DNA from: Opitutaceae bacterium | GTDB taxonomy: Bacteria > Verrucomicrobiota > Verrucomicrobiia > Opitutales > Opitutaceae | DNA length: 64,000 bases | NCBI GenBank assembly: GCA_041649735.1 | Contig: JBAZMN010000001.1 | Coordinates: 509-64,508 of the forward strand | Reading direction: 5' to 3' | The notes under the pieces: model-generated | The model's input: the letters and a program-made list of their open reading frames with translations, nothing else | Told to the model about the DNA's origin: nothing | The model's database searches: none | Shown here: positions 6,807-47,662 of the stretch, one piece after another | Numbering within the stretch: the stretch's first letter is position 1 | Layout of the letters: each line of letters opens with the position of its first letter | Made by a program: the position numbers and the translations under genes

Positions 6807-6815
6807 AATTCGCTC

Positions 6816-10966: not shown

Positions 10967-11007
10967 GATCTAAACTCCAATTGTGTTGTGTGGTGATTGC
11001 TTGGTAA

Positions 11008-11847
11008 TTAGTTCGGCCGCGCTATCCGCATCGGTGGCGGAATGATACCGGCCTGACGCATTTCTTCCGCCGACAACGGGCCGCCCATCATCGGTTGCCC
11101 AGGGCCCATCGGCGGCCGGGCAAACTGTTGTGTCTGCGGCGGCCCCGCAAACGTGTCGGCTTCCGGCAAGTCAATGGCCCCTTCGGCCTTGAGTACGTTG
11201 GCAACTGCCGAAATAGCCCGGCTCTGTTGTACGCTCATTACGATGCCATCGGGCACGGCCTCGGTAAGGGCCTTGATGGCTTCCGTAGCGTTGGGGGCGA
11301 TGATGGCCCGGCTCTGCGGAATCTGATTGTCTGCGGTCACGAAAACAACTTGGTAGGCATACGCAATCATGTCACTCGCTCCTTTGGGAACTTCTGCTTT
11401 TGCGCCCCACTTGCCGACGGGGCACGATTCGGTCGCCATCTTGATCTTGTTCAAGACAGTGAGTTTAGAAAGGTTTACATTGCAGCCGCATTTCGAGCAT
11501 TTGCCGTCTACGAAATATTGGCAGGGCCTCGGCTTCGGGCGGCAGAACGTGTTGTAGATTTGCTCGACTTCCTCTTGGCTTCGCTTCGGCCGACCGGCCT
11601 TGTACCATCGCAGCAGGGCCTTGATGTAGGTCTTTGCCGTCTCGAAGGACACGCCCAGGTCGGCCGCCGCTTCCTTCGTCTGTTCCTCTGCTTCCGCCGT
11701 CATGGGAATCTCTTGCGGCGGCAGATAGCCGGGCCGCTTCATGGGTGGCATGGCCATCGGCCCCAAGTAGCCGTCGTTCATCGTCAGCGGTCTGCGAATC
11801 GAGCCGAGCATCTTGTTGATCGGGTGTGTTGGGTCTTGTGGTCGCAT
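11008..11847 (-). CDS. Hypothetical protein with Cys-cluster (CSKCGCN..CPVGKW) and Pro/Met/Gly-rich ends
   Basis: ATG at 11847 lies 1 nt after the giant gene stop; the track start at 11862 is TTG. Confidence 0.55.
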   Translation of the reverse strand: MRPQDPTHPINKMLGSIRRPLTMNDGYLGPMAMPPMKRPGYLPPQEIPMTAEAEEQTKEAAADLGVSFETAKTYIKALLRWYKAGRPKRSQEEVEQIYNTFCRPKPRPCQYFVDGKCSKCGCNVNLSKLTVLNKIKMATESCPVGKWGAKAEVPKGASDMIAYAYQVVFVTADNQIPQSRAIIAPNATEAIKALTEAVPDGIVMSVQQSRAISAVANVLKAEGAIDLPEADTFAGPPQTQQFARPPMGPGQPMMGGPLSAEEMRQAGIIPPPMRIARPN

Positions 11848-11848
11848 A

Positions 11849-17524: not shown

Positions 17525-18393
17525 TATGACAACAAGCACGGTGCCCCAACAACGAAGAACTTTCTCGCATTCGGCCAGTAGTCAACGATGACCGGCGTAA
17601 AAGGCGGAATCGTCTGGCCTGGTGCCAACAGGTGATCGTGGGCCGTTTTGATTGTCAGCCCGGCACTATTGATAAGCAGCGCCACGGCCGCCGATTGGCC
17701 GTAAGGCATTCCGCCGCGGCGCATAATGAAGCCTGGAAAACTCAACTGCTGCGACATGCGATGCGTTATCATCACGTACTTAGGGCCACCGACTAGCCCT
17801 TCGTAGCCGTTGGTGTCGGAGTAGCCGTCCACGGCCACGGATGAACACTGAACAATGTCACCGGCCCACGCGGGTAGTTGCAGGCTCGGGTCGATAACAA
17901 TCACCGTCGAGGTTGTATTGACTTGACCTTCTTCGGGGTCGTATAGAAATCCGGCGTCCAGCAGTTCCAGCGGATTAGCCAAGGATGAATAGGTGTCATC
18001 ATCCATGTCCCGCAGCATCAGGTAATAGTTCGTGCTGACGGAACCGCCCGCGACGGCCAGCCACTTGCCGAACTTGTCGCGGTTCACCTGGAACCAGCCG
18101 CTGGTAATGGCGGTTGCCGAGAGGTTGTAAATCGCTCGCATGATGCCGGCGGAAATCAGCGTTGGTACGCCGGTCACTTCGACGATCTTGTAAATGTCGC
18201 ACTCCGCTTGGCCCGGCGTGGTGCCGCTTAACGCCGGTAGGCCGCCGCTCGGAGCCTGAGCCACGTACACATCCGGCGTCTGGCCCGGTAGACTGAGGCT
18301 CGTTGACGCAGCTCTATTTTGTGGACGGGCACGCCACTGGGCGAGGATGCGCCGCAAGTCGCGATGGTCTTCCTCAGTCAGAAATTTGGCCAT
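17524..18393 (-). CDS. Tail-tip/baseplate-like protein, short paralog
   Basis: Shares FLTEEDHRDLRRI.., PDVYVA, CDIYKIV, WFQVNRDKFGKWLAVAGGS and RMSQQLSFPGF blocks with the 18393-19754 product. Confidence 0.65.
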   Translation of the reverse strand: MAKFLTEEDHRDLRRILAQWRARPQNRAASTSLSLPGQTPDVYVAQAPSGGLPALSGTTPGQAECDIYKIVEVTGVPTLISAGIMRAIYNLSATAITSGWFQVNRDKFGKWLAVAGGSVSTNYYLMLRDMDDDTYSSLANPLELLDAGFLYDPEEGQVNTTSTVIVIDPSLQLPAWAGDIVQCSSVAVDGYSDTNGYEGLVGGPKYVMITHRMSQQLSFPGFIMRRGGMPYGQSAAVALLINSAGLTIKTAHDHLLAPGQTIPPFTPVIVDYWPNARKFFVVGAPCLLS

Positions 18394-24537: not shown

Positions 24538-24984
24538 TTACTGTGTTTGCCGCAGTGACACCACGGCGTTGATGGTGAACAATCGTCGGCCCGTGTTCGG
24601 CTCCTCTCCGATGTCGAACACGTCGCCGATGTGAGCGAAGCAATGCACGCTGTACTGGCTGCTTTCAATGGTCACTGTCGCACGCCGGATGTCCTTGGCC
24701 AGCGTCGCGCGGATAGCATCGGCCTTGCGGTATCCGGTCTTGGGGTCGCTGTCCCGCACGGAAATCTGGATACCGTAATGGCCCAGCATTTCGCCGCTCT
24801 GCATGTCGCGGCCGTCGCCGGTCCCCGCAGTGTTGTAAACGACAATCAGCTTGTCTGGTTGGTCTGGCGACAGCGTTGCGAAAATCGGCCAGTCGCCACC
24901 GACCGACGGAAGAACGCCGAGATTCACGGCAATCAACAGATTCCGCGTAACATCCGCCGGTGAGTGGGTTAGTCCGTTGCTCAT
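24538..24984 (-). CDS. Tail terminator / tail completion protein (candidate)
   Basis: Lies between the gp10-like gene and the tube gene. ATGA-coupled. Confidence 0.5.
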   Translation of the reverse strand: MSNGLTHSPADVTRNLLIAVNLGVLPSVGGDWPIFATLSPDQPDKLIVVYNTAGTGDGRDMQSGEMLGHYGIQISVRDSDPKTGYRKADAIRATLAKDIRRATVTIESSQYSVHCFAHIGDVFDIGEEPNTGRRLFTINAVVSLRQTQ

Positions 24985-25346
24985 TCTTTTCGCGTAAAGG
25001 CGCTGCCGCGTAGGTTCCCCGTGTCAACTGGCACGATTGCTTGGCTGGCCCGCTGAATGCGAAGGCCGGCAAGGTAAAGTGCCTGCTGCATGGTACTGCC
25101 GTTTGCCACGGCCTCGGTTACGATGGCGGGCAGTTCATTGGTGGCCAATTCGCGGGCCGGTTGCTCCAGGTATTTCCACTGCTTTCCCGGTTTGTGTGCG
25201 GCGTTTCGTTCGTGGACGTGCAAGGCGTAAGCCGCCGTGTAGCCGACGATCACGCTCGTGCCCTTGACGGCATTGGGAGAGTCGAAATACCGACTCGCCG
25301 CCTGCTGCAAGGCACGCTTCAGTCGTTCTACGCCTTCGACTTTCAT
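24981..25346 (-). CDS. HK97 gp10-family head-tail joining protein
   Basis: MKVEGVERLKRALQQA...VKGTSVIVGYTAAYALHVHE pattern. ATG at 25346 avoids overlap with the spike gene. Confidence 0.65.
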   Translation of the reverse strand: MKVEGVERLKRALQQAASRYFDSPNAVKGTSVIVGYTAAYALHVHERNAAHKPGKQWKYLEQPARELATNELPAIVTEAVANGSTMQQALYLAGLRIQRASQAIVPVDTGNLRGSAFTRKE

Positions 25347-25354
25347 GCTGTCTG

Positions 25355-27835
25355 TTATCCGAATACGTTGGCCATCGCGTGCGGACTGGTAGCCGTGCTT
25401 GGTATGCTGTAGTTTTTCCATGTCCCGGTTGTGCCGCGTCGAACTCGATAGGAACAGCCGGTAGGCAGATTTGCAAACGTGACCAGTCCGGCAGCGTCAC
25501 TTACTTCGCTGCGGGTTGCGGCGTCGTAGCAGGCGCCAGTCCCCGCCACGTTGATGATTTGGAGTTGCACGGTCACGCCGCTTTCGACAACACCTTGCGT
25601 GCTGTAGCAGTACAGATAGCCGGTAACGAAGCCAGCCTCGCTGTCGGGAAGGGTGACGGCCGATACCGCGTAGGTATGCGACGTATCGGCAGATACGGCC
25701 AGCGTGGTTGGCGTGAAGCTGCAACCCGAAGCAGTGATTGACACGGCCCACGTACCATCATCGACGGAGAAGGTAACAACGCCGGATGCGTTGGTGGCCC
25801 CCACGTAGGATTCCGCGCCTTTGGTCAGGCGTACCGTGGCGTTTTCGACAGGATTCGTGCCATCGGTTACGGTGATCGTGACGGTACGCGCCCCAGTGCC
25901 GAGCAATGCGGTTCCAATCGCGTTCGCCAGCGTGGTCCGCTCTCCACTGGTCAGCGCCATTGCGTCGCCAGCCCTGGCTGGTGCGTAGTTCGGCTGTGTT
26001 GCGGCCAGCGTCACGTCGCCTGTCTGGCCACCGTATCCGTCTGGTGCGACGGTCGGCAGCGTCACGGCCACGGATCGCTGTTGGTAGTCGGTGGGTATTG
26101 TCGCCCCGTCCAGTCCAGCCACGTCAGCGGCGATGGTGTCGAGGGTGGTCTTGTCGGCCACCGTTCCCGGCACTCGACTTAGCAGCGTGGAGATGTTCGT
26201 TCCGAGCGATGCGACGGCCGACGCTACTTCATCCTCGGTCAGCACGGCCGTCCCCGCGATTCCGTTGGCAGCACCGAAGAACGCCGACGCCGCCACCAAT
26301 GCCGCATCCCCAGTGTCCCAATGTGCTTCGTCCTCCGGCCCAGCGTTCGGCAACCGAAGGTCGCCAACAATGTCATCAACCGTTTTGCCGTATCGCAGGT
26401 CAGTGGTCACAAGATCGTCCGTTCCTGTCGCCGTCCCAATGTTTGACGCGCGGAGCGTGCCGGTCTCGCCGTCGCCACGATCAACGCCGTATCTAACGTC
26501 GCCAACAGCCGCTAGCGGATAGGCGTTGGCCTCGTTTGTTGTCCACCCGCCAGCTACAGACGTACTATTGGCCAGCCAGGCAGCAATCAGGTTGGCGCGC
26601 GTTTCCGGCGAAACCGTTGTCCCGAGGATATACCCGCTGCCACTTCCTGCCAGGCTATACTCGTTCTCGTCGAACACTAAATGGCCGGTGCTGTCGGCGG
26701 TTTCGGCCGAAATTGCAAGGGCGGTCCCGGTGGTGACAAAACGATTTGACGTTACCGAGACGTTTTTGCAGAGCTTGTTGGAGTCGGCATCGTTGGCGTA
26801 GACGCGAATCCCCTTTGCCCCCGCTCCGCTCACGTACACGCGGTTTCTGAAATAGCTGGCCTCCGTCACGCCCTTGACGATCAGGCCGGTGGAGGTCGTG
26901 GATTCCGCGTAAATGTCGTTGTCATAGACCTGATAGCCTGTGCCCCACTTGCAAACAATCGCCATCCCGCCACTGCCGGCCGCTCCCGTGTGGACCACAT
27001 TTCTCCTGCACACAACGCCATCGCCATCGAGCATCAATACGTGCATTGACCCAGTGCTGCTTATCGTGATGTCCTCCACGATGACATTCGTGTTGCGAGC
27101 GGATTTTGTATCGCCGCTATTGCCAACGGACACGGACATATCCGTCCCGCTCCACGTTCCGCCCGATACCCGCACCACATTTGCCGGTCCCCTGAACCAC
27201 ACACCCTTGCCAACGAATGTACCGTTGCAATCCACCACGCGCACGTTGCTCATGGTGCCAGTCGATCCAGAGCCAAGCATAACGGCATAGTCAATGCTAT
27301 TAGGAGTCAGGAACGTGCATCGCGTGAACAACAGCGATGTGACAACCGCCGTTGATGCGTGTTGAACCAGTCGCCCGGTGCCATTCGCGTTCGTCAGCGT
27401 ACAATCGCGCATCTCAAACCCGGTGAGTGCCTGTTCGGCGAAATAGAAGCACGTAGATATGCTGGTTGGCGCAAACGTGCAATTTTCAAATCTCCAGTTC
27501 GATCCGGCAGCCGAATAGTGTCGGATTAGCGAGCCGCCGGTCCCCGCGCCAGTGATCGTAAATCCGCTCTGGTAATCGCCCGGGTTGGTGACGGGTTGGA
27601 TTACCACGGTGCCTGCTGCATTCAGGCGATTGAGATTCAGGTACGCTGCTGGAGTGAGCGTTTTGCCATTCGTAACTTTGATGTAGCATGATACTCCGCT
27701 GCCGTCTGCGACTGCCGTGTTGTCGCATGTGGTCATAGCCTTGCCGAGCGATGCCCACGGGGTCGCGGGTGACTGCGCCTGCGCTTCGCTGTTGGAATCG
27801 CTTCCGGTGTCTGGATCAACGTAATAGGTTTTCAT
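25355..27835 (-). CDS. Right-handed beta-helix (pectate-lyase-fold) spike / depolymerase-like protein with C-terminal CarboxypepD_reg-like domains
   Basis: N-terminus MKTYYVDPDTGSDSN...PWASLGKA is typical of beta-helix proteins. The C-terminal region includes VTITVTDGTNPVENATVRL..NASGVVTFSV. Confidence 0.7.
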   Translation of the reverse strand: MKTYYVDPDTGSDSNSEAQAQSPATPWASLGKAMTTCDNTAVADGSGVSCYIKVTNGKTLTPAAYLNLNRLNAAGTVVIQPVTNPGDYQSGFTITGAGTGGSLIRHYSAAGSNWRFENCTFAPTSISTCFYFAEQALTGFEMRDCTLTNANGTGRLVQHASTAVVTSLLFTRCTFLTPNSIDYAVMLGSGSTGTMSNVRVVDCNGTFVGKGVWFRGPANVVRVSGGTWSGTDMSVSVGNSGDTKSARNTNVIVEDITISSTGSMHVLMLDGDGVVCRRNVVHTGAAGSGGMAIVCKWGTGYQVYDNDIYAESTTSTGLIVKGVTEASYFRNRVYVSGAGAKGIRVYANDADSNKLCKNVSVTSNRFVTTGTALAISAETADSTGHLVFDENEYSLAGSGSGYILGTTVSPETRANLIAAWLANSTSVAGGWTTNEANAYPLAAVGDVRYGVDRGDGETGTLRASNIGTATGTDDLVTTDLRYGKTVDDIVGDLRLPNAGPEDEAHWDTGDAALVAASAFFGAANGIAGTAVLTEDEVASAVASLGTNISTLLSRVPGTVADKTTLDTIAADVAGLDGATIPTDYQQRSVAVTLPTVAPDGYGGQTGDVTLAATQPNYAPARAGDAMALTSGERTTLANAIGTALLGTGARTVTITVTDGTNPVENATVRLTKGAESYVGATNASGVVTFSVDDGTWAVSITASGCSFTPTTLAVSADTSHTYAVSAVTLPDSEAGFVTGYLYCYSTQGVVESGVTVQLQIINVAGTGACYDAATRSEVSDAAGLVTFANLPTGCSYRVRRGTTGTWKNYSIPSTATSPHAMANVFG

Positions 27836-28128
27836 CCTTTCGCCTCCTCTCGCCGCTCGGCCTGCCGCATTTCTAGCTCATGCCTAGCGGCCAATTCGTC
27901 CCACCGTAGCATCGATTCCTCTCGGGCCGCGTTATTCGTGGCTTCCTCTCGCCGCTCGGCCCGCCGCGTGGCCGCCGCCTCAAGTTCCGCTATCGCGGAA
28001 TCAATGAACAATCGGAATCGGCCCTGGTTCACTTCGCTACACTCTTTCGCATAGGATTTCGATTCGAGCAACTTCGCCCTCGCCTGGTACTCGTATTCGT
28101 CCATTCCGCTGCGTGCAAGTGGTGCCAT
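27832..28128 (-). CDS. Coiled-coil hypothetical protein
   Basis: Arg/Glu-rich. Contains an internal ~24-bp direct DNA repeat encoding RRAERREEA and RQAERREEA. Confidence 0.55.
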   Translation of the reverse strand: MAPLARSGMDEYEYQARAKLLESKSYAKECSEVNQGRFRLFIDSAIAELEAAATRRAERREEATNNAAREESMLRWDELAARHELEMRQAERREEAKG

Positions 28129-28143
28129 AACATCGACTCCTAC

Positions 28144-28497
28144 TTATCGCCCAGGTTCCTTGGCGGCCAAGCGCGTCAATGTCGCGTTCATCTCATCCTG
28201 CTTGCGGCTGACCGACTGCATCCACGAATCCATCTTGTCGAGCTGCCGCTCCAGCGACTTCCGAAATTCGCCTTCACGGGCCTGCTGGACTTCGCACGCT
28301 CGCAATGCTTGGTCGGCCGTGGCCTGAGCGTTGCGGGCGTCGTTTATTGCCCAGCCGATGGCCCCGCCGCCAAAGCAAAATATGAACAGTGCGAGAAATC
28401 CGAACTTCTGATTCACGCTACCGATACGGTCACCAATAGCCTTGTGCTTTTCCTTGCAGGCGTCAGCATCAAACTCGTTTTCTTCATGTGGTGCCAC
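28144..28497 (-). CDS. Membrane-anchored coiled-coil protein (i-spanin-like or holin-like)
   Basis: TM segment FGFLALFIFCFGGGAIGWAI followed by a coiled coil. GTG at 28497 has an AAGGAAG SD; the ATG at 28557 would overlap the upstream gene by 47 nt. Confidence 0.55.
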   Translation of the reverse strand: MAPHEENEFDADACKEKHKAIGDRIGSVNQKFGFLALFIFCFGGGAIGWAINDARNAQATADQALRACEVQQAREGEFRKSLERQLDKMDSWMQSVSRKQDEMNATLTRLAAKEPGR

Positions 28498-28510
28498 GTT
28501 GCGGCTTCCT

Positions 28511-28906
28511 TTAGTGATTGCCGAGATACGGCGGGTTACTACTGCCCGAACCGCCAAAGTAGACGGGCTGGTCGGTGATTGTCCTCAACAGAATCGATAC
28601 CAAGTTGCTTACGGTCATTCCTCCGCCCGCCCCCATCATCATCCCACTTTCACTGCCGCCGCTGAATTTTCCCCAGACGATCATGCCGACGCCCACGGCC
28701 GCTAATATGCCGGCCACCTGGATTGTCTTGCTCTTCCACCACACCTTTCCGGCCTTGCCTTCCTTGACGGCCGCCGCGAACCCGTCCGCCCATTGGTCCC
28801 GATCGTCCGTGTCCTCTGCTTGGTCTTCGGAGTATTTGCACGGCTGCCGTGTCTGAGCGGCAAGCCAGCCTTCCCAATACGCTGCGGTTTTTCGTTTGGC
28901 CATCAT
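28511..28906 (-). CDS. Membrane protein; weak RMF-like N-terminal pattern
   Basis: YWEGWLAA...PCKY...WADGF resembles ribosome-modulation-factor-like domains, but weakly. A TM segment and a Gly/Met-rich tail follow. Confidence 0.45.
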   Translation of the reverse strand: MMAKRKTAAYWEGWLAAQTRQPCKYSEDQAEDTDDRDQWADGFAAAVKEGKAGKVWWKSKTIQVAGILAAVGVGMIVWGKFSGGSESGMMMGAGGGMTVSNLVSILLRTITDQPVYFGGSGSSNPPYLGNH

Positions 28907-28969
28907 GGTTGTTTTGAGAATGCCCGGCCGGCGGTCTGATTCCACCGGCCGGGCCGTCAAGAGGATCGC

Positions 28970-29311
28970 TCATCGCCTACAGGCCACGCGATGGCAAACC
29001 AGCCGCACCCCCTGCGCAGCGTGCAAGAGCGGCGTTCGTTCGCGCTCGCGGAGTCTGGTAGCGATGGCCTTCAGTCCTTTAGCGGGTAGTGTCGCCGCCT
29101 TGACGGTTAAGCTGGCCACGGTGCCAACGGACCTCCCGGCCGTGGCGATTATCGGCCGTTCCGGTACGGCCAAAACGGTTACGGAAGTTGTCGTCTCGAT
29201 AGTCTTGGTCACGCACTTTTCGCCGTCGCACGGACAGCCGGCCATTGCGGGCGATACAAACAGCATCGCCACGGCGGCCAGCGAAAACAGAAGCAACACA
29301 AACGGTCTCAT
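28970..29311 (-). CDS. Secreted protein or lipoprotein (o-spanin-like candidate)
   Basis: Signal peptide MRPFVLLLFSLAAVAMLFVSPAMAGC with a lipobox-like AMAGC. Confidence 0.55.
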   Translation of the reverse strand: MRPFVLLLFSLAAVAMLFVSPAMAGCPCDGEKCVTKTIETTTSVTVLAVPERPIIATAGRSVGTVASLTVKAATLPAKGLKAIATRLRERERTPLLHAAQGVRLVCHRVACRR

Positions 29312-29343
29312 CGTTCGTTCCTCCAGGGGTTAAAGAAAACTCT

Positions 29344-30759
29344 TTAGCGGCGTCGTTGTCGAGGGTGAAAATATCCGTCGTTCGTTTGCGGCATTGGTTC
29401 CCAATCGTTTGGTTCGCGGCAATCGACGGCCGACGGTTCGGGCTGTTGGATGTCCCGCGTGATGATGCACGCATACCACACGCCGCGTCGGCTCCTGGCC
29501 ATGCCGCTGCCGTACTCGCTGTGCTTGCGGCTGGCGACCGACCAATGGCCGGGCGACTGACGCCAGCAATCAAACATTTCCGCCCACAATTCCGCCGGCG
29601 GATCCTCGGCCTGTCGCGGCCAGCTTTCCGCACAGATTTCGCGGTAGTCGCCCGGGCCGATGCTGTTGAGCATCTGCTGCCGCCGCTGGTCGAAATTTTG
29701 ATGGCCCTGCTTGTCGGCTTCCGCCTGATAGTTCGCGTGAGACTGGGCAAAAGAACATAGCGAAGCGTTCACCTTCGACTTCAGCACGTCGGCCGATTGG
29801 CCGTCTTTGCTTGCGTAACTGAAACCTTCGGGCACCTGGCCGCCGACTTGCGGCTTCTCCGGCTCGGCTCGTTTCGTGCTGAACGCATAGGCGTGAATTT
29901 CCGTCGTACTGACATAAACCGCCTTCGTCCACCGGCTACGGTCGCCGTTCTGGCAGGTGAACACGGCCATTCGCGGGATCGACCCCGGGCCGGTCAACTG
30001 ATTGGCAAACGCCTGTTCGCGGTCCAAATTGACACATGCGACATGGCCCTTCCGCCGCAACTGCGGCAACCACTCATGGACCTGCTTGCACGGCGTACAC
30101 CAGTCGGCCGTAACGATCACCAGCAACGGCCGGCCGTCCCGCTTGGCCGCATCGCTGGCCAATGAGTATCGTTCGGTCGGTAAAAAGTCCCTGTCGATCG
30201 ACTCGGGCTGCGTCATGCTCGACTTTGGCAGACCATCGTCTTTCGGCTGCTTGACCGTCTCGGCCGGCTTCGGCTTCTCCGGTTGCGGTTTCGCTTTTGG
30301 CGGTTCTGCCTTTGGCGGTTCGGACAGCTTCTCGACCCGCTGCTTTAATGCGTCGATGGCCGATTGGCTTGCGGCAAACGCCTGATGCAATTTTGCCCCA
30401 GACTGTTCAAGTCGAATCATCCGCTGGCCCAATTCCTCGATGCCGTCGATCTTCGCTACGGCTCCGTCGATGCGGCCAACGAGCGAATCAATCTTCGTCG
30501 AAAGTTTTCCGACGTCGGCCGATGTCGCTGCCACTCGCTTATCCACGTCGCTGATGGCCAGCGTCATGCACTTATCCAAGTCGGCGACGTGCCTCTGGAC
30601 GGCCTCCACGGGATCGGGTTTCGCGGCCGGCGTCGGCTGCGGTTCGGGCGCCTGCGACTCTACCTGTGCATTCCAGATTGCGGGGTTCAGCCGCAATTCA
30701 CTGTCCGGCTGGTTGCATCCGACCAAGAACATCGAAAATATAATTACTACATTTCGCAT
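29344..30759 (-). CDS. Lipoprotein with coiled coil, thioredoxin-fold (WCTPC) domain and CAP/SCP-like C-terminal domain
   Basis: MRNVVIIFSMFLVGC lipobox. LLVIVTADWCTPCKQV thioredoxin motif. C-terminal ..FDCWRQSPGHWSVA..YGSGMA..GVWYACIIT resembles CAP/YkwD. Confidence 0.65.
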   Translation of the reverse strand: MRNVVIIFSMFLVGCNQPDSELRLNPAIWNAQVESQAPEPQPTPAAKPDPVEAVQRHVADLDKCMTLAISDVDKRVAATSADVGKLSTKIDSLVGRIDGAVAKIDGIEELGQRMIRLEQSGAKLHQAFAASQSAIDALKQRVEKLSEPPKAEPPKAKPQPEKPKPAETVKQPKDDGLPKSSMTQPESIDRDFLPTERYSLASDAAKRDGRPLLVIVTADWCTPCKQVHEWLPQLRRKGHVACVNLDREQAFANQLTGPGSIPRMAVFTCQNGDRSRWTKAVYVSTTEIHAYAFSTKRAEPEKPQVGGQVPEGFSYASKDGQSADVLKSKVNASLCSFAQSHANYQAEADKQGHQNFDQRRQQMLNSIGPGDYREICAESWPRQAEDPPAELWAEMFDCWRQSPGHWSVASRKHSEYGSGMARSRRGVWYACIITRDIQQPEPSAVDCREPNDWEPMPQTNDGYFHPRQRRR

Positions 30760-30774
30760 TACTTCGCTCACCTC

Positions 30775-31548
30775 CTAAACAACGTTCAGGTTGTAGGTAG
30801 TTGCCCGAATCACGTACAGTTCGCTCGGAATCGCCTTGCTACCGAACAGCGTCCAATCATTTCCCGGCCCGTGAGTGTTCGGCGTATGCACTCCAATGCG
30901 ATTGCCGTCAAGTACCAGTCCATCGAGCCATACGGCGTGTCTTGCCCAGTTGTAGGCCGCATAGCAGCCGTGACCATCGACCAATGCCGTAATCGTTTCC
31001 GCCCAAATATCCCGTGCTCCGCCATCGAAGCCCTCCAGGGGCATGTATTGCAGAGCGTCTTGTTCGTATCCAGGCTTCCAGCGGTTTCGGTTGTACTCAT
31101 GTTGCGGGACGTATTCACTTGATGCAATTCCGTACTTCAGCATCCACGTCAGGGCTTTGTCGAGATAGTAACCTTGAATTCTCCCGCCTGTTACACCGAT
31201 CAATGATTCGCCCTGAAGTTGTACAAACGGAAGGCCGGCGTTGAATCTCGCCCCCATTACCGCCTGTGCTGCGGATTTTGCCCAACACGTCGGAAAACCG
31301 TTTTGATAGTCGGATCGAGACTGTAGCCCAAGCCGCTGACCGATGAAACCTCCCCTCGCCAGCGTATCGCGCACGACGTCAGGCCATCGCGACTCAGGAA
31401 GCAACTCGATTCGCTCCGCAAAAACCGGCACACCCTCAAGTCCGCCGATTTCGCTTTCTCGCGGTAGTGCTCCCGGAAAAAAGCCACCGACGGCTTCGGC
31501 TGATTCGATCACCTGCTGCCAATTGGAGTCGTCAATGATGGTGCTCAC
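30775..31548 (-). CDS. Papain-like (C1-type) cysteine peptidase; possible lytic enzyme
   Basis: QNGFPTCW (Gln six residues before Cys-Trp), WARHAVWLDG (His) and GPGNDW (Asn-x-Trp) match the papain triad arrangement. GTG at 31548 has a GGAGG SD and a GTGA overlap. Confidence 0.55.
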   Translation of the reverse strand: MSTIIDDSNWQQVIESAEAVGGFFPGALPRESEIGGLEGVPVFAERIELLPESRWPDVVRDTLARGGFIGQRLGLQSRSDYQNGFPTCWAKSAAQAVMGARFNAGLPFVQLQGESLIGVTGGRIQGYYLDKALTWMLKYGIASSEYVPQHEYNRNRWKPGYEQDALQYMPLEGFDGGARDIWAETITALVDGHGCYAAYNWARHAVWLDGLVLDGNRIGVHTPNTHGPGNDWTLFGSKAIPSELYVIRATTYNLNVV

Positions 31549-31940
31549 TTTATGGCCTCCACGAGCTTCTCTTCGCTGTTTGGACATGGTTGCGAAGAGT
31601 ACGAATCTTCGCCCCGACAGGTAATAAGTTGCGGATGCACACGATCAACACACGCTTTCAGAAACGGAACCAAAATATCCGGCGTGGTCTTTCCGCCCGG
31701 TCCTCTTACGTCAAAATCGAGCGTTTTGATTTTGTGTTTGGGAGCGATGGTATCAATCACCGCCTTGACGTTGTCTGGTAAGCTGCGTTTTGTCTTCGTC
31801 TCGTAGAAGATCACGGCAGCCGTAACTGGTTTTCGGACTTGCGGTATTGGAAGGCCGGCGAACTGCCCATAGCGGCCAGCAAGCCCGACTACCAGCAACG
31901 CCACGGCCACAACGGGAATCGCGTATCGGATCGCTTTCAT
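31545..31940 (-). CDS. N-terminally anchored hypothetical protein
   Basis: TM/signal segment AIPVVAVALLVVGLAG. No other motif recognised. Confidence 0.55.
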   Translation of the reverse strand: MKAIRYAIPVVAVALLVVGLAGRYGQFAGLPIPQVRKPVTAAVIFYETKTKRSLPDNVKAVIDTIAPKHKIKTLDFDVRGPGGKTTPDILVPFLKACVDRVHPQLITCRGEDSYSSQPCPNSEEKLVEAIK

Positions 31941-31943
31941 GGC

Positions 31944-32123
31944 CTACTTCGCCTCCGTGTCGAACCCGAACGTCACCTTGACCGACAGGCCGCCGGTATC
32001 ATCGAGCCTCGCCGACAGCATTTTGCCCAGCGATTCAGCCGCGTTCACCCGTTCTTTGGCGGCCGGCACCAGAAGTTCGGTCACTTCCTTCGCCGACAGC
32101 TCCACGCTCATTGTCGTTTTCAT
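31944..32123 (-). CDS. Small hypothetical protein (59 aa, below the ORF-track cutoff)
   Basis: Hand translation gives MKTTMSVELSAKEVTELLVPAAKERVNAAESLGKMLSARLDDTGGLSVKVTFGFDTEAK. It fills the gap between neighbouring genes. Confidence 0.45.
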   Translation of the reverse strand: MKTTMSVELSAKEVTELLVPAAKERVNAAESLGKMLSARLDDTGGLSVKVTFGFDTEAK

Positions 32124-32139
32124 GGTCGAGTGCCTCTTG

Positions 32140-32601
32140 CTATGTGGCCTTTCCGGTCACAGGATCGAATGTGAGAGATTCGGCGTGTTCGTCGGCGGCC
32201 GGCGGAACGGCGGGAATGAGTCCAGGCGACTCTTGTCCGACGGGCTGCGGCGTGTTTACCGACGTGATTACGATCGGCGGCGTGACGCCTGGCAGGGTGA
32301 CTGCGGTGGCAGGGGCTGGGGTCGCTACTGACGGCGCCTTGCCTTTCACGGCCACCGTCCAGAGATAATTCCACGCCTCGATGGCCTTCGGGTCGGCCTC
32401 AATTGGGTCGTATTCGCGGAGTGCGTAGAGGGCCGCCTTGACGGTCCACTGCTGCGTCACGTCAACCACCGTACCGACCGTCTTGCCGGCCTGGTTGTCG
32501 GTCGCCGCCGGCCATACCCAGCGAATCAACGCCCAGAGGCCCCAAAGGGCAACGAGCAACAGTCCCGCAACAATCAACCAGTCGAATAGTCCGAAAATCA
32601 T
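32140..32601 (-). CDS. Membrane-anchored protein with Pro-rich C-terminus
   Basis: TM segment LFDWLIVAGLLLVALWGLWALI, followed by a Pro/Thr/Val-rich tail. Confidence 0.55.
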   Translation of the reverse strand: MIFGLFDWLIVAGLLLVALWGLWALIRWVWPAATDNQAGKTVGTVVDVTQQWTVKAALYALREYDPIEADPKAIEAWNYLWTVAVKGKAPSVATPAPATAVTLPGVTPPIVITSVNTPQPVGQESPGLIPAVPPAADEHAESLTFDPVTGKAT

Positions 32602-32605
32602 CGCG

Positions 32606-32857
32606 TTACCCTTTCGCCTTCACGGGGTCGGCCCCGTAGGTAAACTCATGTTCGATCGTCCCATTTCGCAAATGGATCACTACTTGGCCGATGTGCCGCC
32701 GCGACCTCGCCTTGGAACATGCCGTCTTGACGGCCGTGGTCTTTAACTTGCTTCTCCGCACAACGCGGTGAGCGTAGTTCTTTCCAGTGATCTCCAACAC
32801 TTGCCAGCGGCGGAGCACAGCCGACCATGTTACGTGAAACACTTTTCTGGTCGCCAT
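32606..32857 (-). CDS. DUF2188-like small protein
   Basis: FHVTW....W.V... and VVIHLRNGTIEHEFTYGADPVKAKG match the DUF2188 pattern (..i.h..dG.I.e...yg.DP.p.kG). Confidence 0.55.
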   Translation of the reverse strand: MATRKVFHVTWSAVLRRWQVLEITGKNYAHRVVRRSKLKTTAVKTACSKARSRRHIGQVVIHLRNGTIEHEFTYGADPVKAKG

Positions 32858-32860
32858 AGT

Positions 32861-33376
32861 TCACCCCGCCGCCGCTGGTGTGCTACTACCGCCTTGCACC
32901 ATTACACCGTGCCGGTTCCTCGCCTCCGTGACGGCCTGGTCGAGGATCGCCGTTACGCTTCGCACGCCCTCGATGCCGGCCAGCGTCCAAGTCGGATCGC
33001 TTCTGTCGTTCGATTGCACGATGATCGACCCGATGCCGAATGCTCGATCAAGGCCCGACTGCTTGCATCGCACGTCCTCGACCATCAGCAGCTCTACGCG
33101 GTCGATGGTCGCCGTCAACAGCCCCGCTTCGCACACCAGCCGCCGCGTGGTCAACGTGTAACGAATTGTGGCGTGACGATAGATCGCGACGGCAACGCAC
33201 CAAAGGCCCGGCAACGCGGACAACAGCGATACCGCCAAGATCACTCGCCAATTTCCCGTCGCCATCGACGCAAACGAGCACGCCGCGAAGATGATCGCAG
33301 AAATGACCCACGCCCCGGCCATCGCCTTCGTGCTGTACGTGCCCGACCAGAGTTGTTTTTCCGCTTCATCGACCAT
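32861..33376 (-). CDS. Bacterial PH-domain (bPH_2 / YdbS-YdbT-like) membrane protein
   Basis: Two TM helices, then YTLTTRRLVCEAGLLTATIDRVELLMVEDVRCKQSGLDRAFGIGSIIV. Confidence 0.65.
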   Translation of the reverse strand: MVDEAEKQLWSGTYSTKAMAGAWVISAIIFAACSFASMATGNWRVILAVSLLSALPGLWCVAVAIYRHATIRYTLTTRRLVCEAGLLTATIDRVELLMVEDVRCKQSGLDRAFGIGSIIVQSNDRSDPTWTLAGIEGVRSVTAILDQAVTEARNRHGVMVQGGSSTPAAAG

Positions 33377-33379
33377 CAA

Positions 33380-33610
33380 TCATCCTGCCAGAAATCGAAC
33401 CACAAACCGCAAACCGATCATCGCCAAACCGAAAAAGCCCGCCATCGTGCAAATTGTCGCTCCCAGCCAAAACAGCAGCAGCATTGGCGGCCCGCCGATG
33501 CCCGGCCAACCGCTGTAGATCGACACCATCGTGGCACAAACACACCACACGATACTGCCGCAAAGCAGCATCATCATCCAAAGCCACCACAGTTCGACCA
33601 CCGCGTACAT
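33380..33610 (-). CDS. Small multi-TM protein (holin-like candidate)
   Basis: 76 aa and almost entirely hydrophobic. GGAGG SD. Confidence 0.55.
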   Translation of the reverse strand: MYAVVELWWLWMMMLLCGSIVWCVCATMVSIYSGWPGIGGPPMLLLFWLGATICTMAGFFGLAMIGLRFVVRFLAG

Positions 33611-33616
33611 TGTCGA

Positions 33617-33796
33617 TCAGCCTCCGCCAAGCAGGAGTTTGATAAGCCGGAGCGGCCAGAGTACGGCTCCGATGATCGGCCGCTGGGCCTCGTGGTTAAT
33701 CAGGTAGATCAGCATGATGATGGCCGGAACAACGTAGGCCGCCACGCCGCCGATCGCAAACAGGTACGCATTGCCGCGTCGGATAATCTCACGCAT
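33617..33796 (-). CDS. Small TM protein (59 aa, below the track cutoff)
   Basis: Hand translation gives MREIIRRGNAYLFAIGGVAAYVVPAIIMLIYLINHEAQRPIIGAVLWPLRLIKLLLGGG. Confidence 0.5.
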   Translation of the reverse strand: MREIIRRGNAYLFAIGGVAAYVVPAIIMLIYLINHEAQRPIIGAVLWPLRLIKLLLGGG

Positions 33797-33809
33797 GGAT
33801 CACCTTCTT

Positions 33810-33950
33810 TCAACCGAACAAGATGTGACACACAAAACAAAACACGGCACCCGCGATGATGCAACGCAACACGACCGACGGCAACTTAAGGAACGTCAGA
33901 ACCAGCAGGCCGATTAGGAAAAACTCAAATAACTTCCAGAGGATCAACAT
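33810..33950 (-). CDS. Small TM protein (46 aa)
   Basis: MLILWKLFEFFLIGLLVLTFLKLPSVVLRCIIAGAVFCFVCHILFG. This is the internal ATG of track ORF 33810-34148. Confidence 0.5.
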   Translation of the reverse strand: MLILWKLFEFFLIGLLVLTFLKLPSVVLRCIIAGAVFCFVCHILFG

Positions 33951-33955
33951 GGCCG

Positions 33956-34054
33956 TCAGTTCGATAAATCGAAAAACCACTGAATGAATTTGTTTATCAG
34001 GATCATCGCCACAACCACACCCAACATCGCCAACATGCCGCCGACGAATCCCAT
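33956..34054 (-). CDS. Mini TM peptide (32 aa)
   Basis: Hand translation gives MGFVGGMLAMLGVVVAMILINKFIQWFFDLSN. Starts 3 nt after the upstream stop. Confidence 0.4.
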   Translation of the reverse strand: MGFVGGMLAMLGVVVAMILINKFIQWFFDLSN

Positions 34055-34057
34055 AGA

Positions 34058-34999
34058 TCACCGTTTTTTCTCCGACCACAAGCCCCGCTTTTCCTGCTGT
34101 GCCTTGAACTGCTCGACGGTCCAGGCGTTCGGTGCCCCTTCGCGGCACGTCGCCAGCCCGGCCCGTACTTGCTCTAAGTTGAGACTGGCACCCGACTGGC
34201 CGAACACTTCGCCGATGATCGGACCACGGGCCGCTTCATACACAATCAACGTCCCGCTGCCTCGGCAGTACGGACAGGTTTCTTCGGCGGGCACGAAGTC
34301 CTTTAACTCACTGCTTAATCGCTGCCATCGTGACCGAAACTCTGGACAGAACGCTGCTAGCCTTGCGTTGTCGTGCAGCGCCTTGCGGCACTGTTCACAT
34401 TTTGGCAAATGCCCGTCACAGTATACGGACATCGACGCGTAAATCATGTCCTGCCGCGTCGCGGTGTGCTTGCCAGTCCCTTTACAAAGACTGCAAGCCG
34501 CTTCCTTGCCATCATCCAAAACGGAGCCGCCGTTTTCACCTACCGGGGTTTCCGGTTCCTCTGCCGCCGACGGCTCGGCTACGGGGAGGCTCGACTGGCC
34601 GCTGGAGTCGCTCCGAAAGATACCGTGCTTTTCGCACGTGACGGTAACGCTACTTCCTGCTACCTGTTCAAGGTGCTTGCGTGCCTCGTCGGCCCATTTG
34701 CCAGCGGGCGGTTGGTCGATGCCGGCCAATTGCACAACCGCCGTTCGCCGGCGGCCGGTCTTCACGGTCATGCTGTTGCCGCTCTCGACCGACACGACCT
34801 CATATGGCCCGACCGTGACATATCGCGGTGGCCTGGGCGGACGTGGCGGCCGTGGCCCGCGGCATGACCAGTTGCGGGCGATAATCGCCAAGCAAATCAG
34901 GCAGACCACCGCGACGGCCGCCAGCACGTAAAGCGATATGAAGCCCTGCTTGCGTGTGTGCCGTGACCTTACCATGCTTTTGATTCCGAAAATATCCAC
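34058..34999 (-). CDS. Membrane-anchored staphylococcal-nuclease (SNase/OB)-like protein with an inserted DnaJ-type zinc finger
   Basis: N-terminal TM helix and an RPPRPPRPPR linker. SNase-like halves: VVSVESGNSMTV..VQLAGIDQPP and ARGPIIGEVFG..LNLEQVRAGLA..KRGLWS. These are split by an acidic linker carrying CSLCKGTGKH and CPYCRGSGT. Confidence 0.55.
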   Translation of the reverse strand: MDIFGIKSMVRSRHTRKQGFISLYVLAAVAVVCLICLAIIARNWSCRGPRPPRPPRPPRYVTVGPYEVVSVESGNSMTVKTGRRRTAVVQLAGIDQPPAGKWADEARKHLEQVAGSSVTVTCEKHGIFRSDSSGQSSLPVAEPSAAEEPETPVGENGGSVLDDGKEAACSLCKGTGKHTATRQDMIYASMSVYCDGHLPKCEQCRKALHDNARLAAFCPEFRSRWQRLSSELKDFVPAEETCPYCRGSGTLIVYEAARGPIIGEVFGQSGASLNLEQVRAGLATCREGAPNAWTVEQFKAQQEKRGLWSEKKR

Positions 35000-35002: not shown

Positions 35003-35383
35003 TCAGCTCCACGATCCTGCTTGCAGTGCCGGCAATGCGTTGCTGTAGTTTTTCAGTCCCACGGTACGATAGATGTTGCGACCCTTAATGTCCGGCGTCT
35101 CCGTGTAGTCAACCACACGCTTTAGATTCGTCGGTTGCGCCGGCATTTCGTCCATGCGGCCCAACCACATAATGCTGTCGATGGGAATCTCCCGATCGAC
35201 AACCACCAACGCATCCAAGTCCACAACGCGACCTCTCGCGTCCGCGACGTTGTGCATCAGGCGATTCCAGCGAACAAACAACTCGACCGGCTCCAGTACG
35301 GTTGGATTGCCGTAATCGTCCGTTCCGGCGGATTCCCACAATACGGCTGATTGATGTCGAAATTGACGCTCTAAGCTGGCCAT
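35003..35383 (-). CDS. Head-closure / head-tail adaptor protein (candidate)
   Basis: Position after the gp6-like connector. 126 aa. TAATG coupling. Confidence 0.5.
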   Translation of the reverse strand: MASLERQFRHQSAVLWESAGTDDYGNPTVLEPVELFVRWNRLMHNVADARGRVVDLDALVVVDREIPIDSIMWLGRMDEMPAQPTNLKRVVDYTETPDIKGRNIYRTVGLKNYSNALPALQAGSWS

Positions 35384-35799
35384 TACGCCCGATCCTCATA
35401 ATCAATCTGTTGACTCGGAACCTTCCCCAACCACGCCGCCCCGGCCTTCGGTCGCATCGGCATGTCGATCCTCGCCAGATACCCCGTCACGTCCATTCGC
35501 TTGGCGGTTTGGCCATAGAGTGTGCCGTCATAGCCCATATCCGTCCGACCTTGAAACTGCCCGCTCGCCCCGCCCGTTGATTTGCTCTGCAATAGCTGGT
35601 CGGCGTGTGCGTAGAAGTGAGCAGCCAAGTACCGTTCGATCATTTCCAAATCCGCCGCCGTCAATTCACTGCCGGAATCGTTCGCGGCGATCTTATCGAC
35701 CACTAGCGTTGCCGTGTCGATAAAAGGCGTCAGGCTGGACTCGCCATCGTAGTGGTCCAGCAGGATGCCTTGAACGGCGGTGGTGTCTGTTCGCGGCAA
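35383..35799 (-). CDS. Head-tail connector (gp6 / DUF4054-like) protein
   Basis: ..LEMIERYLAAHFYAHADQ.. is the pattern typical of head-tail connector proteins. TTG start with a GGGAG SD. Confidence 0.55.
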   Translation of the reverse strand: MPRTDTTAVQGILLDHYDGESSLTPFIDTATLVVDKIAANDSGSELTAADLEMIERYLAAHFYAHADQLLQSKSTGGASGQFQGRTDMGYDGTLYGQTAKRMDVTGYLARIDMPMRPKAGAAWLGKVPSQQIDYEDRA

Positions 35800-46824: not shown

Positions 46825-47466
46825 TTACCGTAACGTCAGCATCGCCGGGTTTAGTACACTGCCTCTCTCGTTGGCCTTTTCGCCTTCGGTCCCAATCTGC
46901 ACATCAAGATTGTGCCAACGTCGCAACTCCTCGCCATGTTGCCAGCAATCCGCTAGCACCCGCACAGCAAAGCCGTACATGGCCCCAGTGATGCCCTCGT
47001 CGTCGGCAATGCGTGAGGCTTCCTCGGCACATTCGGCGATTGCGGACCCTACCGCAATTCGCGTCTGCATGATACGCGCCCACTTCTCTGCGTAATCGAC
47101 GACCGCCTTGCCGTAGCCGTCCTGGTTGGCCAGTTCCCGTGATTTCCATTTCAGTTCATTGCGTAGCATGATCGGCGGCGCATCCGCCAAGATCGCCGCC
47201 AACGTCGCACGCTTCTCGGCTTCCTTCCTCGCCCACTCCGCACGCTGGGCAATCACCTCCGGGCGGGCGTTGTATTCTTCGCTGCGCCGCCTTGATTCTG
47301 TGTCGTAGTGGAGCGTGATGTCCTCGGCAGCGCAGCCTGGTACTGCTGTCAGTTCGATTTCATTGAATGAACACGTGACCTGTTCGCCGGTGTCGTTGGC
47401 TAGCTGCACCATACGTCTGGCGGTTTCGCTGACATGTTCGCCGCAATGTGCTTCAAGTGTTCGCAT
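46825..47466 (-). CDS. Hypothetical early protein
   Basis: ATG at 47466 after an AAAGGAG SD; the longer track ORF overlaps the upstream gene. Confidence 0.55.
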   Translation of the reverse strand: MRTLEAHCGEHVSETARRMVQLANDTGEQVTCSFNEIELTAVPGCAAEDITLHYDTESRRRSEEYNARPEVIAQRAEWARKEAEKRATLAAILADAPPIMLRNELKWKSRELANQDGYGKAVVDYAEKWARIMQTRIAVGSAIAECAEEASRIADDEGITGAMYGFAVRVLADCWQHGEELRRWHNLDVQIGTEGEKANERGSVLNPAMLTLR

Positions 47467-47662
47467 TTTGGCTCCTTTCTTCTTCGACTTCATCCACCAC
47501 GATTCGCACCTTGACGGACCGCTCGTTCTCTGTAGCGTTAATTCCCGCGTCCTCGGCGGTTGGATACAGCACTGGAGAATCCACAAACGTAGTGAACGAA
47601 TCAACGTGACCACGCTCATCCACCAGAATCCAGTAGTGGTTGGCAAGTTTTGGTTTGGTCAT
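47453..47662 (-). CDS. Hypothetical early protein
   Basis: ATGA-coupled ORF. Confidence 0.55.
   Translation of the reverse strand: MTKPKLANHYWILVDERGHVDSFTTFVDSPVLYPTAEDAGINATENERSVKVRIVVDEVEEERSQNANT

Follow-up and report, generated by a model that had tools for sequence, protein, structure and literature searches.

The window analysed here, a 64,000-nt stretch of contig JBAZMN010000001.1 (assembly GCA_041649735.1, Opitutaceae bacterium; positions 509 to 64,508 of the forward strand), is nearly the whole genome of a temperate tailed phage, essentially complete and with an integrase at one end. Between its head and tail genes, a tightly packed cassette of 16 minus-strand open reading frames (ORFs; p1-p16, 27832-34999) was found. 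This cassette is tentatively interpreted as a late-expressed lysis or egress cassette, in which a non-canonical proteolytic effector is combined with holin-like and spanin-like parts and redox helpers, and we put the probability of this reading at roughly 45%. The candidate effector is p11, a cysteine peptidase of the C1A (papain/cathepsin) type and the only hydrolase in the cassette, and it belongs to a conserved core of five genes (p1, p8, p10, p11, and p14).

Scans of approximately 70 window ORFs with Pfam or PHROGs, and NCBIfam matches, revealed no lysin of the lysozyme, amidase, transglycosylase, or peptidase type. The muralytic domains considered were GH19/24/25, SLT, Amidase_2/3, CHAP, NlpC/P60, M15, and M23. 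Since no muralytic enzyme could be recognised in this near-complete temperate genome, the cassette is its only candidate for lysis. An earlier reading of this stretch, made from the letters alone (the sequence-only reading), had likewise recognised no lysozyme, amidase, or transglycosylase and had named the cassette as the sole candidate lysis or envelope-remodelling system, and with regard to lysis both statements were supported.

Cathepsin-like protease p11

In a 20-sequence alignment of the p11 family, Q95, C101, W102, H217, A218, and N237 were invariant, and the Q-C-H-N catalytic set of p11 was intact, with the canonical C1 order and motifs (Q-x5-CW; HAV; N-x-[WH]-G). In Pfam, nothing matched p11 at E<=0.1, which places it under the Peptidase_C1 gathering threshold, and the family profile matched cathepsins S/K and papain at E~2e-5. 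The match to cathepsin S (E=1.6e-5) spanned the catalytic-Cys helix. Thus, p11 is a divergent C1 member or represents a sister family. The AlphaFold2 model of p11 (pLDDT 89, pTM 0.88) showed the two-lobe papain fold. Foldseek returned 229 PDB matches to this model at E<=1e-3, and the top 50 listed were nearly all C1A enzymes. The best match was procathepsin K (E=2.6e-8, TMq 0.6), with procathepsins K, B, and L at E~3e-8. Zymogens were aligned over approximately 270 columns and mature enzymes over approximately 210; since the zymogen alignment takes in the N-terminal 75 or so residues, p11 as modelled appears to resemble a zymogen. The papain-like peptidase proposed by the sequence-only reading was therefore strongly confirmed by catalytic set, profile, and fold. 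In BFVD, phage proteins named 'Peptidase C1A' matched p11 at E=3e-11, and a C1-like phage protein named 'Peptidoglycan binding-like', also held there, was counted in favour of a role in lysis. A function of p11 as prohead protease was rejected, because its gene is coupled to those of membrane proteins and a DUF2213 protein is already available as a candidate for the protease/scaffold role.

An exhaustive hidden Markov model (HMM) search for the p11 family gave 1036 representatives with E<=1e-3, of which 580 had E<=1e-10, and the family comprises >1000 clusters at 50% identity. Among the 167 best relatives, 153 were stand-alone proteins of approximately 260 aa, with an N-terminal hydrophobic segment in 0/153, and about half of the 14 longer ones showed two matched stretches. 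A signal peptide, lipobox, or anchor is present in four of these longer proteins (P0145, 676 aa; P0151, 370 aa; P0177, 656 aa; P0196, 587 aa). This split into signal-less and exported forms, comparable to that between canonical and exported endolysins, points to a target outside the cytoplasm. Moreover, the C-terminus of P0145 is a CPPC thioredoxin domain (E=8e-9), and this fusion ties the protease to thiol-redox partners. In the exported forms, Ig/IPT-like repeats and a pre-domain of approximately 110 aa, collinear with p10, precede the protease; the similarity of the pre-domain to p10 was non-significant (hhalign E=0.003-0.16, probability <=10%).

In P0056 and P0166, two of the longer relatives, the gap between the matched stretches is an intein placed exactly at the catalytic Cys (...QNGYSY/C...VHN/CWSYS), that of P0056 being long. 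Inteins at this site indicate that the enzyme is strongly conserved and probably important. An intein at the catalytic Cys is also probable in P0077, P0086, P0110, P0169, and P0193.

The true start of p11 is probably the GTG at 31548, although the longest ORF reaches 31587. From this start, p11 overlaps the p10 stop by 4 nt, and the same p10/p11 overlap, an arrangement for translational coupling, was found in every locus. The pair (30775-31940) also stands apart in its G+C content at third codon positions (GC3), which is 0.57-0.58 compared with approximately 0.70 in neighbouring genes, a hint of acquisition from a phage with lower GC.

Conserved five-gene core

Related loci, 33 in number, were collected, and the core families were traced in them by local iterative HMM searches. 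The order p1-p8-p10-p11, followed 1-5 kb further on by p14, was kept in approximately 20 uncultured phage contigs. Homologues were obtained for p1 in 20 loci, p8 in 17, p10 in 22, and p14 in 16, with p14 additionally found by tblastn in L032. In the closest relatives, L001 and L032, the genes p8-(p9)-p10-p11-p12-(p13)-p14-(p15) are collinear. The sequence-only reading had offered conservation as a unit as a check on its proposal; the check was borne out for the five-gene core and, in these two loci, for p8 to p15.

The surroundings of the core were also compared. In L017, L019, and L025, both connector genes lie directly upstream of the p1 homologue, and L017 and L019 additionally share p4 and the C-terminus of the downstream spike. 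Accordingly, the position between head-closure and spike genes is conserved in true relatives. The C-terminal 180 or so residues of the spike are 56-59% identical in L017 (14793-15338) and L019 (8223-8810), which exceeds the identity of the other proteins shared with these loci except p4 and suggests that receptor and host are common to them. The T4-like jumbo contigs (185-388 kb) have the core between Portal_T4 and Gp23. The carriers of the core, HK97-like temperate and T4-like jumbo phages, are unrelated, and many of them come from the same metagenome samples; the same core order in unrelated phages of shared samples is expected for a host-envelope-specific function. In the jumbo relatives L002, L007, L010, and L018 (approximately 10780-12730), two GDP-sugar dehydratase/epimerase genes and a gene of approximately 221 aa directly follow the p11 homologue. 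Distant p11 homologues (approximately 30% identity) keep an anchored protein just upstream, and in L023, L024, and L026, a small hydrophobic protein is encoded just downstream, with two hydrophobic segments scored in L026 only.

A tblastn search of 50,697 cultured phage genomes with p1, p11, p12, p14, and two L024 proteins returned no match. In 185,579 species genomes, the p11 profile found a single distant relative on a 3.5-kb contig of a metagenome-assembled genome; this search yielded neither a prophage in a named isolate nor a pointer to the host. Both the five-gene core and the C1A family of stand-alone phage proteins appear to be undescribed so far.

In the case of p1, the SNase domain (PF00565) reached 20.8 bits against a cut-off of 21 and DnaJ_CXXCXGXG reached 21.6 bits, and the family profile matched staphylococcal nuclease at E=1.2e-5 over residues 6-136. 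Together with the CxxCxGxG motifs and a transmembrane (TM) segment at 23-41, this upholds the TM-anchored SNase-like/zinc-finger chimera described by the sequence-only reading. In the family consensus, TGAS replaces DGDT, IAAPS replaces VDTPE, and the Arg positions are not conserved; the Ca-binding and catalytic residues of the nuclease are D21, D40, T41, E43, R35, and R87. Because these residues are replaced, p1 is best regarded as an inactive SNase-like fold. Its Zn-ribbon insert is variable or absent across the family, and its soluble domain is predicted by positive-inside counts to face the cytoplasm. An active periplasmic nuclease was consequently rejected as the function of p1, as the catalytic residues are missing and the topology is cytoplasmic.

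The p8 homologues, detected invariably between those of p1 and p10, probably also keep their soluble domain in the cytoplasm, judging from sequence, and p1 and p8 may serve as regulators or timers that face the cytoplasm. Sugar genes occur in the window and in the jumbo relatives, and glycosylation could target the Thr-rich linkers of the p8 family.

The p10 family has an invariant Pro103 before beta3. A three-sequence model of low confidence (pLDDT 53) gave the order beta-alpha-beta-alpha-beta-beta-alpha, and its top Foldseek matches were nearly all thioredoxins, although weak (E>=0.045). The p10 profile had no meaningful match in PDB. Accordingly, p10 probably has a thioredoxin fold, for which the structure matches are suggestive, and its topology is probably N-in/C-out.

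The p14 protein consists of a positively charged N-terminal motif, two TM segments, the second of which is Gly-rich, and a Pro-rich tail. Positive-inside analysis predicts an N-in/C-in topology with a cytoplasmic N-terminus, and class-II holins have the same topology with two TM segments. The sequence-only reading had called p14 an RMF-like TM protein. The TM part stood, with two segments, and the RMF (ribosome modulation factor) part was weak: the hhalign match to E. coli RMF covered 33 columns at a probability of 52% (E=1.4e-4), and Pfam gave no match in this region. The p14 family includes 32 clusters in the database, one of which is named 'ribosome modulation factor' by JGI.

Organization of the cassette

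All 16 ORFs were recovered on the minus strand, and the unbroken run of membrane and secreted gene products between head and tail genes proposed earlier was thereby verified. Neighbouring ORFs of the cassette are spaced by -4 to +63 nt; 3 nt separate p1 from the gene before it, and at the other end p16 overlaps the spike gene by 4 nt. Four promoter-like sites were observed in the cassette and 4.7±2.4 were expected, so that no enrichment was found. The small gaps and the lack of a promoter-site excess indicate, at the sequence level, co-transcription with the late genes. The GC content of the cassette resembles that of the rest of the genome, and the GC3 of its ORFs (0.57-0.80) is in the range typical for genes of this genome.

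According to hydropathy, a TM segment, signal peptide, or lipobox is present in 12 of the 16 products (p1-p6, p8, p10, and p12-p15). When ORFs were called with a crude picker, those with a TM segment amounted to 7/12 in the cassette and 12/88 in the rest of the window (Fisher p=0.0014). The other products, p7, p9, p11, and p16, are soluble; moreover, several of the proteins that were called envelope-directed probably keep their soluble domain in the cytoplasm, as judged from topology prediction.

PADLOC, run on p1, p6-p8, and p10-p15, matched p7 alone among these, to the candidate system PDC-S16 (E=2.8e-7).

Lipoproteins and accessory proteins

Beyond the core, a set of proteins is shared with the closest relatives. 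The lipobox (LVGC), thioredoxin domain, and CAP domain attributed to p12 by the sequence-only reading were all recovered, and both domains were above cut-off: Thioredoxin_7 reached 29 bits (cut-off 27), with the DsbE subfamily at E=3.3e-5, and CAP (PF00188) was marginal, at 22.2 bits against a gathering threshold of 21.1. WCTPCK and SIPRM of p12 align to the WCGPCK and IPT motifs of thioredoxin, so that both the CxxC and the cis-Pro loop are present, and by sequence the domain is closest to periplasmic DsbE-type reductases. Homologues of p12 follow the p11 homologue in L001, L030, and L032. The second lipobox protein also stood, as AMAGC in p13 fits the lipobox pattern and a signal segment was located at 4-22. 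A weak p13 homologue occupies the same position in L032 (E=5e-4), and L001 has an analogous signal protein of 124 aa; p13 is a candidate outer-membrane partner of the o-spanin-like kind.

The TM coiled-coil protein, p15, was supported by a TM segment at 53-71 (long ORF), a heptad score with its peak at 96-133, and weak matches to coiled-coil families. Heptad-like segments were scored in p12 and p15 with a home-made measure. A p15 homologue (45% identical) after the p14 homologue is conserved in L032 only, and p15 is a candidate i-spanin-like component. A p9 homologue was found by search in L001 only, and L032 has a 61-aa ORF at the equivalent position.

The p4 peptide is a candidate holin or antiholin-type modulator, and in L017 and L019 the gene next to the p1 homologue, on its downstream side, encodes a p4 homologue of 57-61% identity. 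The ENA gene call fuses p2 and p3 into one 83-aa ORF (33810-34061, minus strand) coupled to the p1 stop. This model was rejected, as its GC3 is 0.33 compared with 0.70 for the two small ORFs, which favours the separate small hydrophobic peptides of the sequence-only reading. In the case of p6, the bPH_2 assignment was verified (PF03703, E=1.9e-8), and phrog_3707 'membrane-flanked domain' matched at E=1.1e-8. The DUF2188 assignment of p7 was weak, with 16.5 bits against a cut-off of 22, and phrog_3220 matched at E=3.5e-4. Possibly, p16 is a spike chaperone. No homologues of p2, p3, p5, p6, p7, or p16 were found in any of the collected loci, and the treatment of all 16 genes as one system was therefore given up. 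Table 1 summarizes the features.

Table 1. Features of the p1-p16 cassette and of its flanks (positions in the window)
Feature	Coordinates	Strand	Description
DUF4054-like connector gene	35383-35799	-	conserved left flank together with 35003-35383
Presumed head-closure/connector gene	35003-35383	-	upstream boundary; identity from position only
p1 (core)	34058-34999	-	inner-membrane-anchored; SNase/OB-fold domain interrupted by Zn-ribbon (CxxCxGxG) insert
p2	33956-34054	-	32-aa hydrophobic peptide, one hydrophobic segment; accessory
p3	33810-33950	-	46-aa hydrophobic peptide; accessory
p4	33617-33796	-	59-aa membrane peptide; N-terminal Arg cluster, TM segment 12-30, amphipathic tail
p5	33380-33610	-	76-aa protein, 2 TM segments; accessory
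p6	32861-33379	-	2-TM membrane protein with bPH_2 (YdbS/YdbT-like) domain; moron-type accessory insert
p7	32606-32857	-	small basic soluble protein, DUF2188-like; accessory
p8 (core)	32140-32601	-	N-terminal TM anchor, short helical domain, Thr/Pro-rich linker, conserved C-terminal strand
p9	31944-32123	-	59-aa soluble protein; subfamily-specific
p10 (core)	31545-31940	-	N-terminal TM anchor and candidate thioredoxin-fold domain without CxxC
p11 (core)	30775-31548	-	signal-less C1A (papain/cathepsin)-like cysteine peptidase; candidate effector
p12 (subfamily)	29344-30759	-	lipoprotein (LVGC); coiled coil, EPPK-rich spacer, CxxC thioredoxin domain, CAP/SCP domain
p13	28970-29311	-	small Cys-containing secreted protein or lipoprotein (AMAGC)
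p14 (core)	28511-28906	-	holin-like hairpin membrane protein; RMF-like N-terminal motif, QYTPPP-type tail
p15	28144-28497	-	inner-membrane protein; C-terminal heptad/coiled-coil domain
p16	27832-28128	-	98-aa soluble Glu/Arg-rich helical protein; overlaps spike start by 4 nt
Beta-helix spike	25355-27835	-	826 aa; right flank; Beta_helix E=9.8e-7
Neck1/tail-completion-like gene	24981-25421	-	3' of spike; phrog_5 E=0.006 among right-flank evidence
Tail terminator	24538-24984	-	PF12691 E=4.3e-9

Genome context

Almost every gene of the window is encoded by the minus strand. Read from the highest coordinates downwards, the order is RecT, a PD-(D/E)XK nuclease, DUF5131, a C5 methylase, Mom, a Tad4-like gene, TerS, a 525-aa ORF without annotation (presumed large terminase), portal, MuF, a DUF2213 protein, the major capsid protein (DUF6260), the DUF4054-like connector, and the presumed head-closure gene. 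The cassette is followed by the beta-helix spike, the Neck1-like gene, the tail terminator, further tail genes, and a sugar-modification cluster. The presumed head-closure gene had zero matches in Pfam, PHROGs, or PDB, including a PDB profile search, and the PDB profile search was also empty for the Neck1-like gene.

On the opposite strand, at 26-3161, a lysogeny-side cluster encodes the integrase, a signal-peptide protein of 281 aa, an Imm_superinfect-domain protein (E=3e-18) with three TM segments, and a 2-TM protein with a double zinc ribbon. The cassette is therefore not the only envelope-related membrane cluster that can be considered in the window, as had been implied earlier.

The sugar-modification cluster after the tail genes (4847-9527, minus strand) encodes a DegT aminotransferase, an NAD-epimerase, a SAM methyltransferase, GT2, and GT1. 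The 1896-aa ORF of the tail region (11849-17539, minus strand) has no Pfam match; the giant protein that it encodes is presumably of the tape-measure or fibre-like kind. Also identified were a Tad4-like Thoeris inhibitor domain (46825-47646, minus strand; E=5e-27) and a Mom-like protein (52403-52984, minus strand). Inside the Mom-like ORF, ARAGORN reported a 'tRNA-???' with a two-base anticodon (52899-52971), which is probably spurious. The ENA contig k141_3028779 (65,360 nt) is the same sequence shifted by +1623 nt relative to the window. With only 65,360 nt, this offset means that the two assemblies are permuted, which fits a circular or terminally redundant genome.

Interpretation of the cassette

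What the analysis shows is which genes and domains are present, the catalytic residues and the fold, the synteny and conservation across loci, and that canonical lysins are absent; the following functional steps are inferred. The p11 protein would build up in the cytoplasm as a signal-less, self-inhibited zymogen, while the p14 hairpin, p4, and the contig-specific p2, p3, and p5 would gather in the inner membrane and finally permeabilise it in a holin-like manner. After entering the periplasm, p11 would work with its coupled partner p10 and, where the subfamily has it, as here, with p12, the lipoprotein with CxxC thioredoxin and CAP domains. It would cut the peptide or protein connections by which the wall or the outer layers are kept together. 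The outer membrane would be handled in a spanin-like manner by p15 with the lipoproteins p12 and p13. Accessory inserts such as p6 and p7 would stand outside this scheme.

Several observations weigh against a lysis function. None of the cassette proteins matched the holin, spanin, or endolysin families of Pfam, PHROGs, or NCBIfam; the composition thus has no textbook components by family, which agrees with the earlier statement that it is unlike a standard holin-endolysin-spanin set. To our knowledge, C1A proteases are not known as wall hydrolases or as cutters of peptidoglycan stem peptides, and p11 has no wall-binding domain. The p1 domain, the p14 N-terminus, and probably the p8 domain are predicted to be cytoplasmic, and p1 and p14 resemble folds that bind nucleic acids or ribosomes, for which known lysis systems have no use. 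Unlike in known spanin arrangements, the candidate i-spanin gene comes after the lipoprotein genes. In the jumbo phages, the core is within the head module and is interleaved with GDP-sugar genes. Lastly, approximately 25 ORFs of the window are unannotated, and a novel lysin could be concealed among them.

The alternative that survives best, although it is unlikely, is that the core forms a late host-takeover or regulatory module, tethered to the inner membrane and active on its cytoplasmic side, and that lysis is carried out by an unrecognised enzyme encoded elsewhere. The protease would then act on host or phage proteins, and the OB/Zn-ribbon and RMF-like domains would bind nucleic acid or ribosomes. 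The predicted cytoplasmic location of the p1 SNase-like domain and the p14 RMF-like N-terminus would fit such a module, as would the signal-less p11, the Zn-ribbons, which are typical of cytoplasmic proteins, and the RMF-like motif in p14 itself. The inteins at the catalytic Cys of P0056 and P0166, an insertion usually seen in essential housekeeping-type phage enzymes, the position of the jumbo-phage core inside the head module, and the unannotated ORFs are also consistent with it. However, the exported relatives of the protease, with a signal peptide, a lipobox, and a fused periplasmic-type thioredoxin, argue for a non-cytoplasmic target. Moreover, p10 is probably N-in/C-out, lipoproteins and TM coiled-coil proteins always accompany the module in this subfamily, and no lysin was found elsewhere.

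A more specific form of the lysis interpretation, for which the odds are longer still, is that lysis is free of any endolysin and is proteolytic and redox-driven. In this form, p11 would be released by the holin-like hairpin protein and either activated or kept reduced by anchored or lipoprotein thioredoxins, it would dissolve a disulfide-stabilised protein wall or outer layer of an uncultured host, and the module would be swapped between unrelated phages as a host-specific unit. The host may be of the PVC group (Planctomycetes-Verrucomicrobia-Chlamydiae), since the contig was binned with Opitutaceae.

It is quite improbable that the cassette consists of morons, inserted at a permissive head-tail site and serving the lysogen in superinfection exclusion or envelope remodelling. 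The match of p6 to the PHROG 'moron' family of membrane-flanked domains, the match of p7 to a candidate defence family, and the contig-specific nature of p2, p3, p5, p6, p7, and p16 are in its favour, and the phage is temperate, with an integrase, and the GC3 of p10/p11 is below that of their neighbours. However, the marks of morons (a promoter or terminator of their own, odd composition, and a temperate-only distribution) were absent from the cassette, which is translationally coupled to structural genes on both sides, and its core occurs in the late structural clusters of T4-like jumbo phages. A separate immunity and membrane cluster already lies beside the integrase on the opposite strand, and PADLOC was empty for the core proteins. 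The moron explanation may still apply to the p6/p7 insert, for which it is plausible, and not to the core.

Least probable is a role in morphogenesis or entry, with p11 as a virion-associated or spike-maturing protease directed at a proteinaceous surface layer, or with the membrane proteins as assembly or ejection factors: p11 homologues repeatedly adjoin beta-helix spike or fibre genes (the window, L017, L008, L023, L024, and a 48.6-kb JGI contig with P0006), the cassette is inside structural operons, and P22-type ejection-protein genes are generally known to lie likewise between head-completion and tailspike genes, but lipoproteins and N-terminally anchored proteins go into the host membrane and are unexpected in tailed virions, a separate candidate head protease/scaffold (DUF2213) is present, tailed phages with a tape-measure-type tail need no ejection proteins, and the 4-nt coupling of p11 to a membrane protein would be left unexplained.

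If the cassette lyses the host, phages of an uncultured host lineage free their progeny by means of a protease of the cathepsin type, with thiol-redox helpers, where others use a peptidoglycan hydrolase. This would give a clue to what holds the envelopes of such hosts together and would add a new enzyme class to the lysin toolbox. In the endolysin-free form, if true, it would add to the lysis effectors of phages a third chemical class, next to glycosidases/amidases and the inhibitors of single-gene lysis. Whatever its function, a five-gene module is newly defined here, which combines a membrane protein with a dead SNase domain, a pair of anchored proteins, a C1A protease, and a hairpin protein with an RMF-like motif.

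Comparison with known systems

The papain-fold lysins known from phages are CHAP, NlpC/P60, and Amidase_5 enzymes (PMC10318531). Like these and the pseudomurein endoisopeptidases PeiW/PeiP, which are clan CA cysteine hydrolases used by phages in wall attack (PMC10318531), p11 has a papain fold; unlike them, it aligns in sequence and fold with C1A enzymes rather than with the CHAP/NlpC cluster, and it lacks a wall-binding module. Nothing relevant was found in the literature on cathepsin-type endolysins or on lysis in phages of PVC bacteria.

Outside phages, a parallel to the proposed effector is V-CATH of baculoviruses, a viral C1A zymogen that is made late and, together with chitinase, dissolves host barriers for progeny release. 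Both V-CATH and p11 are virus-encoded C1A-type proteins, p11 being a candidate zymogen, and V-CATH fragments were among the weak BFVD matches of p11. However, V-CATH belongs to a eukaryotic virus, undergoes endoplasmic reticulum retention and secretion, and has no membrane-protein operon, and there is no homology at the level of the cassette.

In the bacterial world, Cwp84 of C. difficile is a C1A enzyme that processes the S-layer precursor, and such enzymes can target wall-associated proteins. Xylellain and Cwp84 are C1A enzymes with N-terminal pro-regions, which the N-terminus of p11 appears to resemble, and xylellain was among the Foldseek matches of p11. These are secreted host enzymes, whereas p11 is signal-less and phage-encoded.

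With the S, R, and Rz/Rz1 genes of lambda, the cassette shares a three-layer logic, in which the candidates are p14 for the hole, p11 for the cytoplasmic hydrolase, and p15 with p12/p13 for the outer step. In contrast to lambda, the proteins here belong to none of those families, the lipoprotein genes come before the candidate i-spanin gene with p14 between them, and redox proteins are included.

A further comparison is with P2. Its effector is a lysozyme, whereas p11 is a procathepsin-like C1A protease, and no sequence kinship to Y, K, or lysABC was found. The cassette has 16 genes compared with 5 in P2, the core proteins p1, p8, and p10 have no P2 counterpart, and here the spike gene is within the inserted block. 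Nevertheless, both systems have several small membrane proteins, a signal-less hydrolase, an inner-membrane coiled-coil protein (predicted in the case of p15), and a lipoprotein, and both follow the order of head adaptor, cassette, and tail terminator. In the annotated P2 genome, the genes for the holin (Y), the endolysin (K), lysA, and the spanins (lysB/lysC) lie between the head-completion gene L (plus X) and the tail terminator gene R, the first of the tail-completion genes R/S. As this is the same slot as in the window, the position of the cassette, which the sequence-only reading had considered unusual, is not an oddity but a precedent that favours a role in lysis.

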